This document shows, one piece after another, positions 37 through 17,248 of a DNA stretch of 17,248 bases; the first letter of the stretch is position 1, and every line of letters starts with the position of its first letter. This DNA is from a virus (taxonomy: Duplodnaviria > Heunggongvirae > Uroviricota > Caudoviricetes). Both the position numbers and the translations under genes were made by a program. Under the pieces are notes generated by a model. That model was given only the letters and a program-made list of their open reading frames with translations, had not been told where the DNA came from and made no database searches. Location of the stretch: the IMG/VR virus record IMGVR_UViG_2778261313_000007; one strand, written 5' to 3'.

Positions 37-1446
37 TTAAGTGATAACAGATGTCTGGAAATATAGGGGCAAATCCAAGAATGGAGCACGGTCACGAGTT
101 ACATCAGAGATATCGGAATAACCTAAACCATTTTTGTTAGCAACAACAACACGACGGTTAAAGGTAATGCCGCCAGATGTGTGACGAACAACATTAACGT
201 TATTAGCGTAGGTATCAAGGACACCATCACCGTTTTGTTTAAATCCAGTATCACTATCGCCTAAAACAATAGAATTTCCACCCAATCCGTTAGCAACACC
301 AACACCAAAACCGCTATTAAACTTAGGAATGGTTGCATCCTGACTAATAGACAGTTGGGGAGCGTTAATTTTACCGTTTACGCTAAACTCGATTGCGGTA
401 GTACCAGGACCGCCAGCACGCTGTGTGTAGAAATGCCAGCCGCTTTCATCTGCGCATTCTAATACTTGTTTACGAGTATCATTACCCCATGCACGAATAT
501 TGAAGCTAGATTGTCCGGTATTCTTACCCCATCTCATTTGACCAGCAACTTCAAGATCACCTAAGAAATATGCCTTTAGTCCACCTGTAGCCATATTACG
601 TTCGGTGCTGAAATGGCGACCTTTGCTGTCTTCGAGGTATAAAACGTTATCACGGGCGTTGTTGCTATCGCCCCAATGATTAAATCGAATATAATCACGC
701 GATCCAGAACGCCCAGCGTCGAAAGTCAAAAAACCTTTCTTAATGTAAACGTCATTACTAAAACGAGCGGCACGGCTTGCACGTTCTAACGTTAATGCAT
801 CTTCGTTACCATCACCGCCTAATTGAACGTTACCGGAAGTCAGATCATAAATGAATGGTCGATAAGTATTCCAACCACCAAACTTATCGTTTTCAGCCGT
901 TGACAGAAGATAAACTTTTGCGGAGTCATTGCGCCAAAATGCACCATAATTGCCGTAAATCATACGGAATGCATTTGAGTTAGCAGCTACATACTCGCCG
1001 TTTGTATATACAATTTTAGTTGCACCAGTGGTAATAGAGCATTGACCGTTAGCTTCTAGCTGAAATGAGTTTTTCCCCTGATCGCTATACCATTGGAAGT
1101 TATTTGTTTCAGCACTACCAAAACCAATCCAACCTTGACGAGCATTAGCACCATTGCGGCGGTCTTGCCATTCAATATAGTTTGATTGATTACTAGGACG
1201 CTCTAATCTAAGAACGTTTTGTCCGGCATCAAATACACCTTTACCAGTAAACATGGTGCGACCAGTGATTCGTAGAACTTCGCTAGAATCGGTAGTACCA
1301 GTCGCTAAACGATAAACGTTACCTTGAACAGTTTCATGCCAGATTGTTTCTGCGGCTTTACTACGGAATTTACGAAGATATTTTTTACCAGTACCTGAAT
1401 CGTTATTCAAACTGACAATATCATATGTACCCTGTCCGTTTATCAA
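37..1446 (-). CDS. tail fibre / receptor-binding protein (distal fibre)
   Basis: 468-codon ORF ending at TAA 37-39. G/N/S/T/D-rich composition typical of fibre tips. Overlaps the upstream fibre gene by 26 nt. The only start near the 5' end is TTG at 1444-1446 (no in-frame ATG for about 60 codons) and there is no clear SD, so the start is uncertain and may be translationally coupled. Confidence 0.6.
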   Translation of the reverse strand: MINGQGTYDIVSLNNDSGTGKKYLRKFRSKAAETIWHETVQGNVYRLATGTTDSSEVLRITGRTMFTGKGVFDAGQNVLRLERPSNQSNYIEWQDRRNGANARQGWIGFGSAETNNFQWYSDQGKNSFQLEANGQCSITTGATKIVYTNGEYVAANSNAFRMIYGNYGAFWRNDSAKVYLLSTAENDKFGGWNTYRPFIYDLTSGNVQLGGDGNEDALTLERASRAARFSNDVYIKKGFLTFDAGRSGSRDYIRFNHWGDSNNARDNVLYLEDSKGRHFSTERNMATGGLKAYFLGDLEVAGQMRWGKNTGQSSFNIRAWGNDTRKQVLECADESGWHFYTQRAGGPGTTAIEFSVNGKINAPQLSISQDATIPKFNSGFGVGVANGLGGNSIVLGDSDTGFKQNGDGVLDTYANNVNVVRHTSGGITFNRRVVVANKNGLGYSDISDVTRDRAPFLDLPLYFQTSVIT

Positions 1447-3082
1447 ACATCAACGTTCCGGCCTTGTTTTCGGTGTTGAACATTGTAATAACACGTCCAT
1501 CTGTAACACCAGTAGACGGCTTAACGTTAGTCATAGCTGGGGTGTCATGAACAGTCAGTGAAACACCGCTAGTCTTACCATATTCGACAATAACGTTATC
1601 AGTATAACGACCGTAGTTAACGTAAATGTCGTAGTTATCACCGGAAGTATTAACCGCAAATACTTGATGAACGTTCAAAGAGTTTCGACGATAAGCAGCA
1701 ATACTAACGCCTTTCGGGTTATTGTTACCGGAACGGATAACAATTTCAAGGAAATCAACCTGATCATAGGAGTTAACGTTATAACCATTACCACCGAAGA
1801 TACGAAGCATTACCATACGACCATTTTGTGGGATCGTAGCCGTAGCAATCTTGAAATAAGCACGGGATTCACTACCAGAAGGAACAGACATTGTGACATT
1901 TTTAATAAACATCTTATCAATTTCGCCTTTGGTATATGCGCCAATTTCAGCAGGAGTCGGTTTATCCCCTTCGTGATACATTTTATAGCTAAACGCTTTT
2001 TGTCCCTGAGCATCAAAACCATAGGTTTCAACACGAGATCCGCCAGACGCATAACGGAAAGTAAATCCTCGACCATGCGCTTTACCGGAAGAGTGAGGAA
2101 CGTTAAGGGTTAGATCCATGAGTCCATCTTGACCATTGGTACGGAATGCACCGAAGTAATTAAGATCTCTCGCGGTTGAATCTTCCAGATAGTTACCAGT
2201 CTTGCTATACAAATACGCGCCGTGATAGGTCTTTGTGTTCTTCTTGATATATGCTGCGTTAGCACTACCTTCAATACCATCAATTCGCTTGTTGGCGGCT
2301 GTAATTGCGGCATCGGTCGATGATTTGTTCTGGTCTACCTTGTTGTTAATAGCGGTATGGTTACTATTCACAGTGCCAGTAAGGTTACTGATTTTAGTAT
2401 CAGCATCTTTCTTGTTGTCGGAAACGACCTTTTCAATCGCTGTTTTGTTAGCTGCAACCGTGCTAGTTAAGCTAGAAATTTTGTTATCTGCATCGGTTTT
2501 ATTTGCAGTAACAGTTTTAGTTAAGTTGCTAACGTTGGTGTTAGTGGTATTAACCTTGTTGTTAATCGCGGTGTTATTGTCAGTGACCGTTTTCGTTAAA
2601 GCTGCATGTTTGCTATCTGCATCAGATTTGTTTGCGGCAACGGTTCTTTCAATTGCGATCTTATTCGCAGATACGGTCCCCGTAAGGTTATTGATCTTAG
2701 TGTCGGCATCGGTTTTATTTGCCGTAACTGTCTGGGTTAAGTTACTAACAGTGGTGTTGGTAGCATCAATGCGCTTATTGGTTGCGGTGTCTTTAGCGGT
2801 AATAGTCTGATTCAGTTCAGCTTTAACACTAGCCAGATTATTAGCGGCCTCTTGTTTGTTGGAAGCAATAACACGGTCAGTGCTAGTTTTATTCTGGTCT
2901 ACTTTCGTGTTAAGTTCAGCGTGTTTTTCTGGAGAAACAGAGATTTGAACTACTGCGTTATTTTTATCTTTGGTATACAGAACGTGATCAGCAAGGTTAA
3001 TAGCCAATTCACCCTGTGATAATTGTTCCGGCGTTGGTTTTTTACCAGCCGTTTGTGTGCGTTTAAATTGGATTGATTGCAT
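1421..3082 (-). CDS. tail fibre protein with T/N-rich repeat shaft
   Basis: ATG at 3080-3082 preceded by GAGGTGA SD, stop TGA 1421-1423. N-terminal motif KKPTPEQLSQGELAINLADHVLY. Central repeats of about 14 aa (TVTANKTDADTKINNLTGTV and variants), visible as DNA-level repeats across roughly 2300-2900. C-terminal globular domain. Confidence 0.7.
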   Translation of the reverse strand: MQSIQFKRTQTAGKKPTPEQLSQGELAINLADHVLYTKDKNNAVVQISVSPEKHAELNTKVDQNKTSTDRVIASNKQEAANNLASVKAELNQTITAKDTATNKRIDATNTTVSNLTQTVTANKTDADTKINNLTGTVSANKIAIERTVAANKSDADSKHAALTKTVTDNNTAINNKVNTTNTNVSNLTKTVTANKTDADNKISSLTSTVAANKTAIEKVVSDNKKDADTKISNLTGTVNSNHTAINNKVDQNKSSTDAAITAANKRIDGIEGSANAAYIKKNTKTYHGAYLYSKTGNYLEDSTARDLNYFGAFRTNGQDGLMDLTLNVPHSSGKAHGRGFTFRYASGGSRVETYGFDAQGQKAFSYKMYHEGDKPTPAEIGAYTKGEIDKMFIKNVTMSVPSGSESRAYFKIATATIPQNGRMVMLRIFGGNGYNVNSYDQVDFLEIVIRSGNNNPKGVSIAAYRRNSLNVHQVFAVNTSGDNYDIYVNYGRYTDNVIVEYGKTSGVSLTVHDTPAMTNVKPSTGVTDGRVITMFNTENKAGTLMFDKRTGYI

Positions 3083-11083: not shown

Positions 11084-11680
11084 ATGCTAATTAATCAGCA
11101 AGAAAGAGATGAATTAGCCTTGTCTTGTACCGATCATGAATATCGTTTGCCAGTAAAACATAAGCACTTAAAGACCGATTACACTACATCCGGTTTTAGT
11201 CGCGAAGAAGCGAAAGAGATTTTAATCGAGTTGTATCGCGATCATGGGTATACCGATATTCACAACTTCTTTAAGAAGCATAGAACATCACATACAGAGT
11301 TTCGGAGAGTCCGAGATTGGTTTGATTTTGATATCAAGCGTTATTATCGCATTGATGACGGTCCTATCTATCGGTTGCAGTGGAAGCCGATCCGAGAAGT
11401 GTTGAAACAGAAGAGATTGAATCACGCTATTACACGCTATCGTAACGAGGCTTTCAAGAAAGGCTATGGTGATACAAGGGAACTATTCGTTGAACTCGCT
11501 AACGTGAAGTACAGCCACTATTACAACGATCCTAAATCCTTCTTTGAAGTGCTTCGCAAGGTTGATATAAGTCGGGGTACATACTATTCACGGTTGAAGA
11601 AGTACGGGATTAAGGCAGAGTTCTTTATGTCGGTTGACGATGGAGAACTTTTTCCGATAAAATGTAAGTCCTCTAAATAA
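11084..11680 (+). CDS. DNA-binding protein with C-terminal helix-turn-helix (resolvase/IS-type HTH-like); regulator or possible small terminase
   Basis: ATG 11084 preceded by AAGGAGGG SD. 198 aa. C-terminal DISRGTYYSRLKKYGIK matches the HTH-like motif shared with the two small proteins at 11715 and 14977. Divergent from terL. Confidence 0.55.
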   Translation: MLINQQERDELALSCTDHEYRLPVKHKHLKTDYTTSGFSREEAKEILIELYRDHGYTDIHNFFKKHRTSHTEFRRVRDWFDFDIKRYYRIDDGPIYRLQWKPIREVLKQKRLNHAITRYRNEAFKKGYGDTRELFVELANVKYSHYYNDPKSFFEVLRKVDISRGTYYSRLKKYGIKAEFFMSVDDGELFPIKCKSSK

Positions 11681-13266: not shown

Positions 13267-13734
13267 TTACAGCATATCTAAGCCTTCGTCGTAACCGTAG
13301 AAGCCATTCTGAGAAGAAAAACAGATTGGTGCGTAGTCGTCGTCATCTTCGTCTTGTTCATCTTCTTCTGGGGCTTCCTGAGCGGTTTCTTTGCCGTAGT
13401 TAAACATTGCTTCATCCAGTTCATAGACAGTAACGAAGCTACCCAGGTCAATGTCACCGGAACGGACTTCAAACGGAAGATCATCACGAACAATAATTGC
13501 TGGTAGATCCTGGTACTTTAAGCGTTCTTCATCGGTGAAGACGTTAACAACAATGGTCGGCTTCTTATTACGGTAAAACGCATACCATGCACTAGAGAAA
13601 TGGGATTCATCAGAGTTGAAAAGGATGTTATAACCACGTTCACGGAACATCTTCATTAACTTGTCATTGTGGAAGCTATCAGAATCCAGACCCAGAAGGA
13701 TAAAAGGAGTAGTGGTAGTCATCTTGTGGTTCAT
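13267..13734 (-). CDS. hypothetical protein with strongly acidic C-terminal tail
   Basis: ATG 13732-13734 with AGAGGA SD. 155 aa. C-terminal EAPEEDEQDEDDDDYAPICF... resembles the acidic tails of SSB-like or DNA-mimic proteins. First gene leftward of the large control region. Confidence 0.55.
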   Translation of the reverse strand: MNHKMTTTTPFILLGLDSDSFHNDKLMKMFRERGYNILFNSDESHFSSAWYAFYRNKKPTIVVNVFTDEERLKYQDLPAIIVRDDLPFEVRSGDIDLGSFVTVYELDEAMFNYGKETAQEAPEEDEQDEDDDDYAPICFSSQNGFYGYDEGLDML

Positions 13735-13934
13735 AGTGGAAATCCTCTAAAAGAAAGTGAATCAATCTAATATTATTTATAAAGAGAAAATTCTTGTTAT
13801 TATGAAAGGTGATTGTATTCAGTCGGGCAAAGCCCTCCTTCATAGATTTTGAATAAATCATCATCAAAACGAAGAAGTATCTTTAGAATATAAGAATCTT
13901 TCTTTTGGAGAAATAATAATCAGGAAGCAATTTG

Positions 13935-13963
13935 GCAACCGAAGGTTGCAATCCCGAAGGGAT
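13935..13963 (-). other. tandem UUCG-type hairpins
   Basis: Two adjacent inverted repeats: GCAACC-GAA-GGTTGC (13935-13949) and ATCCC-GAA-GGGAT (13951-13963). On the minus strand both read as C(UUCG)G tetraloop hairpins. Confidence 0.4.
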
Positions 13964-14089
13964 AACCAATACCTTTCTAGAAAGTGATTGTTACTCACTT
14001 CGTTCGTTTACTAGAATCAGTTAGTAACTAGTATTAAATCCCTTTCTGAGAAAATCCTTTCAAAAGCGAGTGAACGCCGTAGGTGTGAA

Positions 14090-14169
14090 CGTGAGCGAAG
14101 CGAACTATCCAATCCCTTTCGAATCCTGCTTGCAGGTCTTAGAAGGTGTTGATGGGCGCTTCGCGCACG
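14090..14169. repeat. extended imperfect dyad symmetry centred on a CCTGC-TT-GCAGG palindrome
   Basis: Arms CGTGAGCGAAGCG (14090-14102) and CGCTTCGCGCACG (14157-14169) are reverse complements with one mismatch. The midpoint coincides with the palindrome at 14125-14136. Partial symmetry extends out to about 14073-14180. Confidence 0.6.
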
Positions 14170-14310
14170 GCTACGCCGTATTCTTTTTGCGAGATCTTTC
14201 TTGAACGTAGTGAGAGAAAACGAGCAAAAAGGAGAACGTTAGTTCGAATTTTATATTCTATGGTCTGTGTGGTGAAATGTCTTTCAAGATCATACACTTA
14301 TGAGATTGAA

Positions 14311-14407
14311 GTGTAGGGTTAGTGTAGGTGTGTAGGTGTTATAGTGTAGGTTTACTGGCTAGTGTAGTGTAGGCCAATCCCTTTAAAGCGTAGGTTTGTA
14401 GTGTAGG
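14311..14407. repeat. cluster of seven direct GTGTAGG(T) repeats (iteron-like)
   Basis: Six exact GTGTAGG copies starting at 14311, 14322, 14330, 14344, 14367 and 14401, plus the variant GCGTAGG at 14388. All in the same orientation, 8-23 bp apart, immediately left of an AT-rich tract. Confidence 0.7.
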
Positions 14408-14413
14408 TTTTTC

Positions 14414-14430
14414 ATCAAAAATTTTGATAG
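14414..14430. repeat. 15-bp palindrome ATCAAAAATTTTGAT (operator-like), copy 1
   Basis: Perfect palindrome at 14414-14428. The 15-mer CAAAAATTTTGATAG (14416-14430) recurs exactly at 14565-14579. Confidence 0.6.
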
Positions 14431-14515
14431 AAAATTCTTGTATATTATTTAACCAGAAAATCACCAAAAACCGCTGTAAATGCATGATTTAAAAAGAATT
14501 ATCAAAAGGTCGTCG

Positions 14516-14524
14516 TGCTATAAT
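14516..14524 (+). promoter_or_regulatory. extended -10 promoter candidate
   Basis: TGcTATAAT (TG at 14516-14517, TATAAT at 14519-14524). The -35 is weak. Confidence 0.4.
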
Positions 14525-14564
14525 AGGTTATAAAGGTTGATAATCGTTATCCGCCATTTTCACA

Positions 14565-14579
14565 CAAAAATTTTGATAG
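14565..14579. repeat. copy 2 of the CAAAAATTTTGATAG element
   Basis: Exact 15-nt direct repeat of 14416-14430, lying about 25 bp upstream of the -35 of the strong plus-strand promoter. Confidence 0.6.
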
Positions 14580-14604
14580 TCATTTCTCGCTTAGATCAAG
14601 TGTA

Positions 14605-14633
14605 TTGACAACTATCAAGGATTATTTTATACT
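14605..14633 (+). promoter_or_regulatory. near-consensus sigma70 promoter
   Basis: TTGACA (14605-14610), a 17-nt spacer, then TATACT (14628-14633), directed toward the 14977-16529 genes. Confidence 0.6.
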
Positions 14634-14921
14634 TTTTCTCGTTGGTAGGGGTTGAAATTTTCGAAACAATCCCCATATTGATGATACGCAAGATTTTTTC
14701 GTGTATAAATACATGCATGAAAATGATTGTTCACTTCTGAAAATCCCCTGATTCACTGTTAATTCATACAGCACTGGCTAAACATACAGTACTTATTCGA
14801 TTGAATAATGTACGAATTGATTAATTATTAATCTTCTCTTTAGCAATTCGTGCTCCCACTGATCGGATATACAGTGGTTTTACAGGGTTTTTCGAAAAAC
14901 ATTTTATAAATAGAATTGTTC

Positions 14922-14941
14922 AGAGCAAAAAGCTCTTTTTT
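14922..14941 (+). terminator. weak hairpin plus T-run just upstream of the 14977 RBS (attenuator or leader terminator candidate)
   Basis: AGAGC-AAAAA-GCTCT followed by five to six T residues. Short AU-rich stem, so low confidence. Confidence 0.3.
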
Positions 14942-14976
14942 AAGAAATCATTATTCCAGATTTAGGAGGATATAAG

Positions 14977-15159
14977 ATGGCACGACCTGTTAAGTTCACT
15001 CGTGAAATCGTTTTAGAAATGGCAAAGCGTTATTTTGAACTGACACCTGATGTAGTGATGGGTGAATGGTTTAAAGGTGAAGGTATTGATCAATCAACCT
15101 TCCACAAACTCTTAAAGAAGTATGACATTAAAGTAAAGATTACCGCCGAGGTCTGGTAA
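14977..15159 (+). CDS. small DNA-binding protein (HTH-like), paralog of 11715..11942
   Basis: ATG 14977 preceded by AGGAGGA SD. 60 aa. N-terminal ARPVKF and C-terminal GIDQSTFHKLLKKYDIK align with the other two HTH-like proteins. Confidence 0.5.
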   Translation: MARPVKFTREIVLEMAKRYFELTPDVVMGEWFKGEGIDQSTFHKLLKKYDIKVKITAEVW

Positions 15160-15203
15160 TAACCTTTCACTGAGAATTATATGATGGCTTTAAAAATAAA
15201 AAA

Positions 15204-15231
15204 GCCTCCCTGTTGGCGCAAGGAGGCTTTT
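15204..15231 (+). terminator. terminator-like hairpin between 14977..15159 and the acidic-protein gene
   Basis: GCCTCC (15204-15209), a 12-nt loop, GGAGGC (15222-15227), then TTTT. Confidence 0.45.
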
Positions 15232-15275
15232 GATATGAACAATTAAACTAACACAGAGCATTCAGGAGTATTTAT

Positions 15276-16271
15276 ATGAAAAATTCTAAGCGCATTACCT
15301 TCAACATGTTTATTAAATCCAACGGCAAACTGAACATCACTGTCATGGAAGGTAAAGCAAGCAAACAAGACAAATCCTTTGAAGTAGTATCAGGTAAGAC
15401 TCTGACCGAAATGCGTCAGAATGCTGGCATCAAAGACGGTGCTGAATGGCAGATCACCAACCGTTTCGACAAACGTCACGTTAAACCTACACTGGTAGAA
15501 GGTGAATCCGTTTATTGCTTCGCTCGTGCTGTTAAAGCTGATGAAACTTACTATCTGGCTGTTGTTAAAACTGCTTCCGGCTTCCGTGCTGTAATGCATC
15601 ACAAGAGCAAACGTAACGAATACGGCGTAGAGACCCAGGAAGTCGCAAAACGCTTCCGTACTGTTGCTACCGAATCCACTGTAAAGGATGTTTCTGGTAC
15701 TGTTAACACCGCTAAAGGCGGTTCCTTCTACAACCACGCATTACAGGTTACTTCCTCCTTCTTCTGCAAAAAAGAAGCACAGAAAGAAGTTTCTCCGGTA
15801 GTAGTTGAAGAAGTTAAAGAAGAAGTTGCAGTGGTTGAATATTCCGAAGTTGAAGCACTGAAAGCACGCATCGCTGAACTGGAAGCTGAAAACGCATCTC
15901 TGAAAGCTGAACTGGCAGCACAGGAAACCACTTTCGAAGTAGCAGCGGTTGAAGTTGAAGCAGTTGAAGAAAAATCCATTGATGAAGAACTGGAAGAACT
16001 CCTTAACTATCGCTGGGGTGTTGTTGCAGAAGTAGAACAAGAAGTTGCTCCGGTAGTTGTTCCGGTTGAAGTTGAAGAAGAATCCGCACCTGTTACTAAC
16101 TTTGAATCCCTGCGCAATAACTTTATGGCTAAATTCAAAACCACTTGGGAAGATACCGAAGAAGAACAAGAAGAGATTGAAGTAAACGAAGACGAGATCC
16201 GCGAAGCACAGATGGCACTGCATGACGCTATCTACGACACCAACTACAGCGCCTACGCATACGCAGCTTAA
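15276..16271 (+). CDS. two-domain protein: basic N-terminal domain plus acidic coiled-coil C-terminal half; high-expression codon usage
   Basis: ATG 15276 with AGGAG SD. 331 aa. The C-terminal half is dominated by E/V/A with heptad-like EALKARIAELEAENASLKAELAAQE. Codons are strongly biased to CTG/CGT/GGT/GCT/TTC/AAC, unlike the rest of the window. Confidence 0.65.
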   Translation: MKNSKRITFNMFIKSNGKLNITVMEGKASKQDKSFEVVSGKTLTEMRQNAGIKDGAEWQITNRFDKRHVKPTLVEGESVYCFARAVKADETYYLAVVKTASGFRAVMHHKSKRNEYGVETQEVAKRFRTVATESTVKDVSGTVNTAKGGSFYNHALQVTSSFFCKKEAQKEVSPVVVEEVKEEVAVVEYSEVEALKARIAELEAENASLKAELAAQETTFEVAAVEVEAVEEKSIDEELEELLNYRWGVVAEVEQEVAPVVVPVEVEEESAPVTNFESLRNNFMAKFKTTWEDTEEEQEEIEVNEDEIREAQMALHDAIYDTNYSAYAYAA

Positions 16272-17140: not shown

Positions 17141-17186
17141 AAATAAGAAAAAGGTTAGCGGGGGATGTTCTCCCATAAGCGCTAAC
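17141..17186 (-). terminator. hairpin plus U-rich tract upstream of the 33-aa peptide gene
   Basis: GTTAGCG ... CGCTAAC 7-bp stem (17154-17186) enclosing a GGGA/TCCC inner stem. On the minus strand it is followed by CUUUUUCUUAUUU. Confidence 0.35.
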
Positions 17187-17248
17187 TTAAGGGTTGTGGT
17201 ATTACGCCTGATATGATTTAACGTGCCGATGAATTACTCTCACGATAA

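Follow-up and report, generated by a model that had tools for sequence, protein, structure and literature searches.

What reads a short pyrimidine-rich word that recurs in the early control region of an uncharacterised prophage lineage? The question is raised by a 17,248-nucleotide stretch of tailed-phage DNA (IMG/VR record IMGVR_UViG_2778261313_000007, here called the window, whose coordinates are used throughout), which is an E. coli prophage. A non-coding region of 1,242 bp (13735–14976) separates two divergent operons. On its left, the leftward operon encodes a 155-aa acidic-tailed protein, a 48-aa protein and a Rha/anti-repressor-like protein; on its right, the rightward operon encodes a 60-aa protein, a 331-aa coiled-coil protein and an 80-aa protein. 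Repeated words of the type AAT(C/A)CCTTTC, hereafter CCTTTC words, are scattered through this region. They form a real, conserved cis-element family, and the repeat is very likely a functional recognition signal. With a probability that we put at roughly 0.4, one conserved protein acting in trans recognises the words as DNA sites, within a region that controls a promoter, an origin or packaging. Sites for a protein are preferred because the words are confined to the region, turn over between alleles, lie close to the −35 box in two unrelated promoter contexts and are independent of a neighbouring specificity cassette, and because models based on base pairing failed.

The first-pass annotation of this DNA had described four copies in the same orientation. 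Three of these are exact and the fourth has one mismatch, and all four are on the plus strand. The list was accurate for the copies that it named and incomplete as a census, missing copy 2b, a decayed copy and two inverted relatives. The family in the window is as follows.

13966–13977, plus strand: copy 1, CCAATACCTTTC, with the exact word starting at 13968; present in nearly all relatives
14037–14046, plus strand: copy 2, AATCCCTTTC, in the context TTAAATCCCTTTCTGA; exact word
14051–14061, plus strand: copy 2b, AAAATCCTTTC, with one C fewer; conserved in types A and B
14109–14120, plus strand: copy 3, CCAATCCCTTTC, located 3′ of a GC-GAA-GC mini-hairpin; in type-A variants only
14276–14285, plus strand: decayed copy, AATGTCTTTC
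14374–14385, plus strand: copy 4, CCAATCCCTTTA, mismatched in its last base only; inside the GTGTAGG array
13980–13989, minus strand: inverted one-mismatch relative, AATCACTTTC (GAAAGTGATT on the plus strand); right arm of the copy-1 dyad
13804–13816, minus strand: inverted relative, ACAATCACCTTTC; ACCAATTCCTTTC in the other allele

The exact word AATMCCTTTC occurs three times in the window (13968–13977, 14037–14046 and 14111–14120, all on the plus strand), against a chance expectation of 0.16 per window in dinucleotide shuffles, where three copies were reached in 0 of 200 trials. When the intergenic region was shuffled alone, the mean fell to 0.01 and at least three copies were reached in 0 of 1000 shuffles. 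The whole related prophage L016 (35.3 kb; handles of this form denote individual sequence records) contains three exact copies, all orthologues of those in the window, and none outside the control region. A similar density throughout the genome, which had been named as the observation that would count against the motif, is thus not found. What speaks for chance or for the compositional bias of an AT-rich, pyrimidine-skewed spacer is that CCTTTC as a hexamer on its own is frequent (the window has 12) and that the enrichment is moderate when one mismatch to the 10-mer is allowed (8 matches window-wide versus 2.9 expected). The exact counts, the confinement within 35 kb and the conservation and turnover of the copies in relatives all contradict this explanation, which is effectively refuted. 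The earlier argument that the repeats are not accidental therefore holds, on the strength of their enrichment, their conservation in 36 distinct homologous regions and the re-emergence of the word in non-homologous alleles.

Those 36 distinct versions of the region came from 58 of 5,426 complete E. coli genomes and 28 IMG/VR contigs, and the related contigs are prophages in the integrated state. Contig searches with an alignment of the 155-aa protein and with the large terminase subunit (TerL) found no relatives outside E. coli and Shigella, to which the prophage family appears to be restricted. The control region is strongly mosaic among the relatives, and almost all variants have copies 1, 2 and 2b. 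A core alignment of 52 distinct instances from the relatives gives the consensus (C/A)AAT(C/A/T)CCTTTC(A/T)A(A/G). The counterpart of the decayed copy in relatives such as L001, L004, L005 and L026 is TATAATCCCTTTC, of the form TATAAT(A/C)CCTTTC, in which TATAAT is a good −10 box. The word also appears within allele sequences that are not homologous to the window: as CACCAATCCTTTTC just 5′ of the type-B iterons, as AAAATCCTTTG in a different right-hand allele, where it directly adjoins a TTGACA −35 box, and as GAAACCTTTAAA 3′ of the type-C iterons. Such turnover, with the word emerging anew in non-homologous alleles, points to a discrete element that would be read in trans. The motif is independent of the alleles of both the 155-aa protein (61–100% identity) and the 60-aa protein (54–100%).

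Variation in the region also concerns another repeat family and a protein encoded to its right.

14307–14410, plus strand: iteron array of GTGTAGG repeats (first repeat family), replaced here by other iterons in other variants
15276–16271, plus strand: 331-aa coiled-coil protein, whose N-domain (about residues 1–137) covaries with the iteron type and not with the CCTTTC word

In other variants the place of the GTGTAGG array is taken by some nine TTTCAGGGGCAAAA repeats or by numerous ACGGGGA repeats; the iterons are exchanged wholesale between GTGTAGG, CAGGGGCAAAA and ACGGGGA. All 21 loci with GTGTAGG encode the type-A N-domain of the 331-aa protein, with at least 93% identity, and loci with other arrays encode proteins that match the 331-aa protein at about 30% identity in the coiled-coil part only. 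The coiled coil and the C-terminal end are common to all types. Because array type and N-domain change together, the iterons and the N-domain are best described as a swappable specificity cassette. The CCTTTC motif stays constant while they swap. An exhaustive HMMER search of 1.84 billion cluster representatives with the N-domain (coding positions 15276–15690) yielded just three real relatives, and a homologue search with the 331-aa protein returned only sequences at least 94% identical to it.

These observations bear on the proposal that two interleaved repeat families make up one composite nucleoprotein site. Copy 4 does lie inside the GTGTAGG cluster, between GTGTAGG at 14367 and GCGTAGG at 14388, and is interleaved with it as described. 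Copies 1–3 are not: they are located 190–340 bp to the left of the cluster in a different module, and the two families evolve independently, which leaves the composite site weakly supported. Integration host factor (IHF) had been suggested as a host protein that might bind here, and this part finds no support, as no IHF consensus is present in 13735–14976. A search of the same interval for DnaA and IHF sites found no TTWTNCACA, no TTATCCACA with up to one mismatch and no WATCARNNNNTTR.

Copies 1–3 and the inverted relatives lie among a promoter, dyads and small hairpins.

13772–13800, minus strand: predicted sigma-70 promoter of the leftward operon (155-aa, 48-aa and Rha genes), −10 AATAAT and −35 ATAACA (TAGACA in the other allele)
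13935–13963, plus strand: tandem mini-hairpins GCAACC-GAA-GGTTGC and ATCCC-GAA-GGGAT, directly 5′ of copy 1
14156–14179, minus strand: tandem mini-hairpins GCGC-GAA-GCGC and ACGGC-GTA-GCCGT, of opposite polarity

The leftward promoter, immediately upstream of the 155-aa gene, is the sole promoter-like site kept in nearly all relatives (34 of 35), and the inverted copy at 13804–13816 sits 3–4 nt upstream of its −35 box. Copy 1 was correctly placed in a dyad by the first-pass annotation: it lies in imperfect 25-nt arms spanning 13955–14002, with a perfect 12-bp palindrome, CTTTCTAGAAAG, at 13973–13984, of which the left arm is the 3′ half of copy 1. Three CTAG tetramers within 55 bp (13977, 14011 and 14028) form nested dyads, CTTTCTAGAAAG and ACTAG-N13-CTAGT. 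Type-B alleles have even more ATCTAGTA words, and CTAG adds one more family of repeated words to this module.

The mini-hairpins form a distinctive group. The window holds four C-GNA-G triloop hairpins with a stem of at least 4 bp, all of them in this region, and 0 of 2000 random sequences reach four. The two pairs, of opposite polarity, bracket copies 1–3. In the relatives the stems are kept and the loops vary within GNA (GAA to GCA in L004 and L005; TTC to TAC on the other strand); in L019 the hairpins at 13935–13963 are replaced by different hairpins at the same place. A further hairpin at 14075–14085 shows compensatory changes between variants (CGCC/GGCG, CGTC/GACG and CCCC/GGGG). The loop type matches that of the very stable d(GCGAAGC) DNA mini-hairpin, an analogy that suggests structure at the DNA level. 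A long-range helix between 14090–14102 and 14157–14169 was considered and rejected, being broken in several relatives by the loop change TTC to TAC, which leaves the local hairpin intact. A sigma-54 promoter at 13931 was likewise dismissed by eye, with the wrong spacing and a site that is not conserved.

On the plus strand the hairpins at 14156–14179 are followed by a T run and resemble a terminator (predicted site 14167–14190). This is one of several features that would fit an RNA element, in which the words would be C/U-rich seeds (UCCC-type, resembling an anti-Shine–Dalgarno sequence) in a plus-strand non-coding RNA or leader that would start near 13896 or 14024 and extend to the terminator-like hairpins at 14156–14190. 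The partners would be GAAAG(U/G)GAUU words or the ribosome-binding site of the 155-aa gene, in an immunity system like P4 CI or P1 c4 acting on the Ant/Rha operon. The fold of 13905–14195 has a z score of −4.35 on the plus strand (0 of 200 shuffles) versus −2.41 on the minus strand, but the local mini-hairpins account for the excess stability. The minimum-energy fold pairs 13980–13989 with copy 2 and GAAGGGAU with copy 2b, yet every proposed pair carries a central U-C or A-G mismatch and the G-to-T change at 13984 in L001 and L033 is uncompensated. In a consensus fold of 26 distinct sequences, calculated on both strands, the covariance terms were −0.39 and +0.03 and only local hairpins appeared. 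The plus-strand word AAATCCTCT (13740–13748), which is antisense to the Shine–Dalgarno sequence of the 155-aa gene, resembles copy 2b (repeat D15), and the leftward operon ends in a Rha/anti-repressor-like gene in a prophage with no recognisable protein repressor; on the other side, no Rfam family matches even at E ≤ 10 and the terminator is non-canonical in type-B variants. Because the predicted leftward promoter lies downstream of the repeats, they are probably outside the leftward transcript. With partners that keep their central mismatches without covariation, base pairing explains the family poorly, and an RNA element is unlikely.

Sequence shared with T4-type phages raises a different explanation. 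An 85-bp stretch at 13850–13925 is 75–80% identical to an element repeated in the intergenic DNA of RB49-like phages (Krischvirus; L045 1200–1275 and 1345–1420), and at least three alternative alleles of it exist among the prophage relatives. The words could then be remnants of duplicated promoter/stem-loop cassettes (PeSL-like, RB49-type) together with recombination joints, with the word persisting as microhomology for shuffling. Consistently, the BLAST matches of many genomes stop at 13977 or at 14066–14069, the 3′ edges of copies 1 and 2b, and copies 1/3 and 2/3 have a longer shared context (74–87% over 15–19 nt; repeats D8 and D9). PeSL cassettes are documented as mediating modular shuffling of this kind (PMC2839356). 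The coincidence of edges is, however, non-discriminating, as the borders of any constrained island attract breakpoints, and other breakpoints, such as that at 13921 in L019, are away from the copies. The RB49-type match itself stops short of the motif, and duplication alone does not explain the word in non-homologous contexts. We regard this origin of the words as quite unlikely.

The RB49-type intergenic region also contains paired hairpins of the same kind, CTCC-GTA-GGAG and TCGC-GAA-GCGA, followed by ATATCCTTTTGTGTAG (L045 1301–1324). In phage DCP80, 9 of the 12 such mini-hairpins found in 9 kb fall within a 1.29-kb region upstream of the terminase operon (L047 1–1286). On this basis the motif might be the single-stranded tail of tandem C-GNA-G DNA mini-hairpins, recognised when the DNA is extruded or single-stranded and signalling, for example, priming, initiation or packaging, in an architecture shared with T4-type phages. 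We consider this a long shot; if true, it would define an undescribed class of structured-DNA control element moving between temperate and virulent coliphages.

Further observations concern the same phages. The tail-fibre genes of the window (37–3082) have 74–85% nucleotide identity to the gp37 distal long-tail-fibre genes of RB49-like phages, and are followed in relatives by a gp38-like adhesin gene; this similarity is a second sign of exchange with T4-type phages. The T4 late-promoter word TATAAATA is found at 13774–13781 (minus strand) and 14905–14912 (plus strand), 40–70 nt upstream of the first gene on each side; the window has five copies in total, all in AT-rich DNA, and the idea of T4-type late promoters was dropped on this ground. 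In the first 9 kb of DCP80 it occurs seven times on the coding strand and not at all on the other, with about 1.3 expected on both strands together. Alongside T4-like early genes (topoisomerase subunit, ndd, antiholin and late sigma factor), the DCP80 record (PQ671644.1; L047 and L048) contains a module of lambda gpA-type terminase, portal and capsid genes that is related to the one in the prophage (TerL 43% identity), and is either a real hybrid or an assembly chimera.

DCP80 also bears on the possibility that the words are terminase small-subunit sites of a cos or pac region, like R1–R3 of lambda cosB, with the hairpin-rich GC island as the site of cutting or initiation. The large terminase of the prophage is of the lambda gpA type, a small subunit could not be recognised, and the lambda R sites GTCGTTTCCTTTCT or GCGTTTCCGTTCT share the CCTTTCT core, at 8 of 10 positions, with copies 1 and 2. 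DCP80, whose TerL is the closest in the phage collection, has its hairpin-rich 1.29-kb region directly upstream of an operon for a 60-aa protein, a 92-aa protein and TerL, and this region has 13–15-nt words in common with the control region. The layout of the 331-aa protein resembles a small terminase subunit (TerS): its N-domain varies, its C-terminal end is conserved and a coiled coil lies between them. Nevertheless, no open reading frame tested matched the Nu1 family or any other TerS, and TerL in the window is five genes and about 2.7 kb away on the other strand. The control region has no IHF site, the motif is absent from the DCP80 region, and the small proteins encoded upstream of TerL in DCP80 have no homologue here. 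A terminase-binding role is accordingly judged distinctly improbable.

We return to the reading of the words as sites for one conserved DNA-binding protein. That the reader is a protein we infer from the comparisons above. In the proposed mechanism, words of the form (C)CAAT(A/C)CCTTTC would be selectively maintained in the constant part of the divergent early-control region, and would be read as single sites and not as fixed-geometry dimer operators. The protein would occupy positions over about 600 bp: just upstream of the leftward −35 box, in the 12-bp palindrome next to the hairpin pair, between the hairpins and once in the iteron array. Once bound, it might determine how active the divergent promoters are and tie the constant module to the variable one of iterons and their cognate protein, which is possibly a specificity cassette for origin/initiator function, packaging or immunity. 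As readers, the strongest candidates would be a conserved helix-turn-helix (HTH)-like protein of 60 residues and its two-repeat paralogue of 198 residues.

14977–15159, plus strand: 60-aa protein with a helix-turn-helix-like pattern, encoded in all variants; candidate reader

Alleles of the 60-aa protein with an overall identity of only 54–88% do not differ in their HTH-like segments. The protein (MARPVKFTRE...GIDQSTFHKLLKKYDIK) is paralogous to the two repeats of the 198-aa protein (BLASTP E = 0.001 for the C-terminal repeat), whose gene at 11084–11680 is divergent from the large terminase gene. Neither protein has a Pfam, PHROG or NCBIfam match.

Several points weigh against such a protein. 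The start-to-start spacing of the plus-strand copies is irregular (69, 15, 59 and 265 bp), their positions relative to promoters are inconsistent, and the lengths of the C and T runs vary (CCCTTTC, CCTTTC and CCTTTTC), as one would not usually expect of a rigid protein site. Nor is the conservation of copies 1–2b motif-specific, because the whole of 13750–14066 is about 90% conserved, more than the 155-aa gene. No protein here matches a characterised DNA-binding family. AlphaFold2 models were too poor for fold searches (pLDDT 48.7 for the N-domain of the 331-aa protein and 36.9 for the 198-aa protein). The similar region of DCP80, as stated, does not contain the motif.

Further features lie to the right of the iterons. 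Rightward promoters have TTGATA −35-like boxes that are overlapped by the palindrome ATCAAAAATTTTGAT (14414–14428) and by a second, partial copy of it (14563–14577); taken with TGCTATAAT (14515–14523) and TTGACA-17-TATACT (14605–14633), these suggest three tandem promoters with operator-like dyads. At 14922–14942, downstream of the strong rightward promoters and ahead of the ribosome-binding site of the 60-aa gene, there is a terminator-like hairpin with a T run (AGAGCAAAAAGCTCT TTTTTAAG). Because it precedes that site, the stretch of roughly 300 nt that begins near 14640 could represent either an attenuated leader or a non-coding RNA in its own right.

In complete genomes the prophage is about 35 kb long, is inserted in hicB and encodes a large serine recombinase; in L016 (NZ_CP119011.1, 10610–45890) hicB is split by the prophage and the recombinase has 559 residues. 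The minus strand of the window carries genes for a gpA-type large terminase, portal, capsid and T4-like tail fibres. The large terminase matches PHROG 15 with E = 3.5e-144, and its RefSeq label in relatives is 'terminase gpA endonuclease subunit'. Family searches of the prophage found no recognisable repressor, Cro, replication initiator or small terminase, and searches of Pfam, PHROGs, NCBIfam and PDB sequences with the 60-, 77-, 80-, 155-, 198- and 331-aa proteins gave nothing significant. Nothing relevant came from tRNA and Rfam scans of the window or from a permissive Rfam scan (E ≤ 10) of 13650–15300. A near-identity search against phages returned no match to the region, a search for distant similarity returned the 85-bp RB49-like stretch only, and nothing relevant was found in the literature on the motif sequences or on hicB prophages. 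Some prophage copies are degraded, by IS2 in the capsid gene (L001), by IS3 cutting the control region (L012) or by deletions (L013). The likeness of the window to related prophages stops at about 17175, beyond which some genomes annotate an IS4-like IS421 transposase, and the end of the window (17176–17248) is probably an insertion sequence.

Taken by itself, a word that is repeated and conserved in the control region of a phage is nothing out of the ordinary. More unusual are its neighbours, the swappable cassette of iterons and N-domain and the tandem C-GNA-G mini-hairpins shared with T4-type phages. The prophage family, which occurs in 58 or more of 5,426 complete E. coli genomes, keeps all of its early control logic within 1.24 kb of non-coding DNA. 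This region splits into a constant module (CCTTTC words, tandem mini-hairpins and leftward promoter) and a swappable specificity cassette (iterons and N-domain). The two-module split offers an experimental handle on which protein reads which repeat and on the role of the cassette in replication, packaging or immunity specificity. If the hairpin-plus-motif unit is a structured-DNA signal shared with T4-type phages, it would point to traffic in regulatory DNA between temperate and virulent phages.

The motif can be compared with several known systems. It differs from the operator of a dimeric repressor, which has inverted half-sites at a fixed spacing: only copy 1 is palindromic, the spacing of its arms differs by allele (2 versus about 8–10 bp) and the order of the arms is reversed in L019. 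As origin iterons, the words provide five to six direct copies on the plus strand (13966–14385), but their steps of 69, 15, 59 and 265 bp do not make a regular, helix-phased compact array, and it is the GTGTAGG, CAGGGGCAAAA and ACGGGGA arrays, not the CCTTTC words, that covary with a protein encoded nearby, in the N-domain of the 331-aa protein. The resemblance to the P4 CI and P1/P7 c4 RNA immunity systems consists of repeated words and near-complements in a leader-like region by a Rha/Ant-like operon that has no recognisable repressor. The differences are that Rfam gives no match, that complementarity is imperfect in every copy with no covariation, and that the leftward promoter lies downstream of the repeats.

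The PeSL cassettes of RB49-like phages resemble this region in being mosaic and intergenic, with sigma-70-like promoters and short GC-rich stem-loops (PMC2839356; PMC4122927). They differ in having polyG/polyC stems where C-GNA-G triloop mini-hairpins are found here, and in that the present element is a temperate siphovirus-like prophage. Lambda cosB, with the gpNu1 sites R1–R3, is comparable in that several CCTTTCT-type words occur in both orientations in non-coding DNA of a phage with a gpA-type terminase. Lambda R1/R2 (TTTCCTTTCT) and the motif agree by eye at 8 of 10 positions, and the shared hexamer could be chance. Unlike cosB, the region has no Nu1-like protein or IHF site to go with it and does not adjoin the terminase genes.

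The remaining comparison is with systems in which constant accessory sites stand beside specificity iterons, such as box A and box B of P1 parS and the host-factor sites of iteron origins. The present region departs from them in that the 331-aa protein is outside the known Rep, ParB and ParR families, the motif spacing is irregular, one copy only lies in the iteron array, no DnaA or IHF consensus is present and the element is an integrated prophage. It agrees with them in having two unrelated repeat families in one non-coding segment, of which the iterons covary with a protein domain and the motif is constant. In this respect the CCTTTC motif behaves like their accessory sites.

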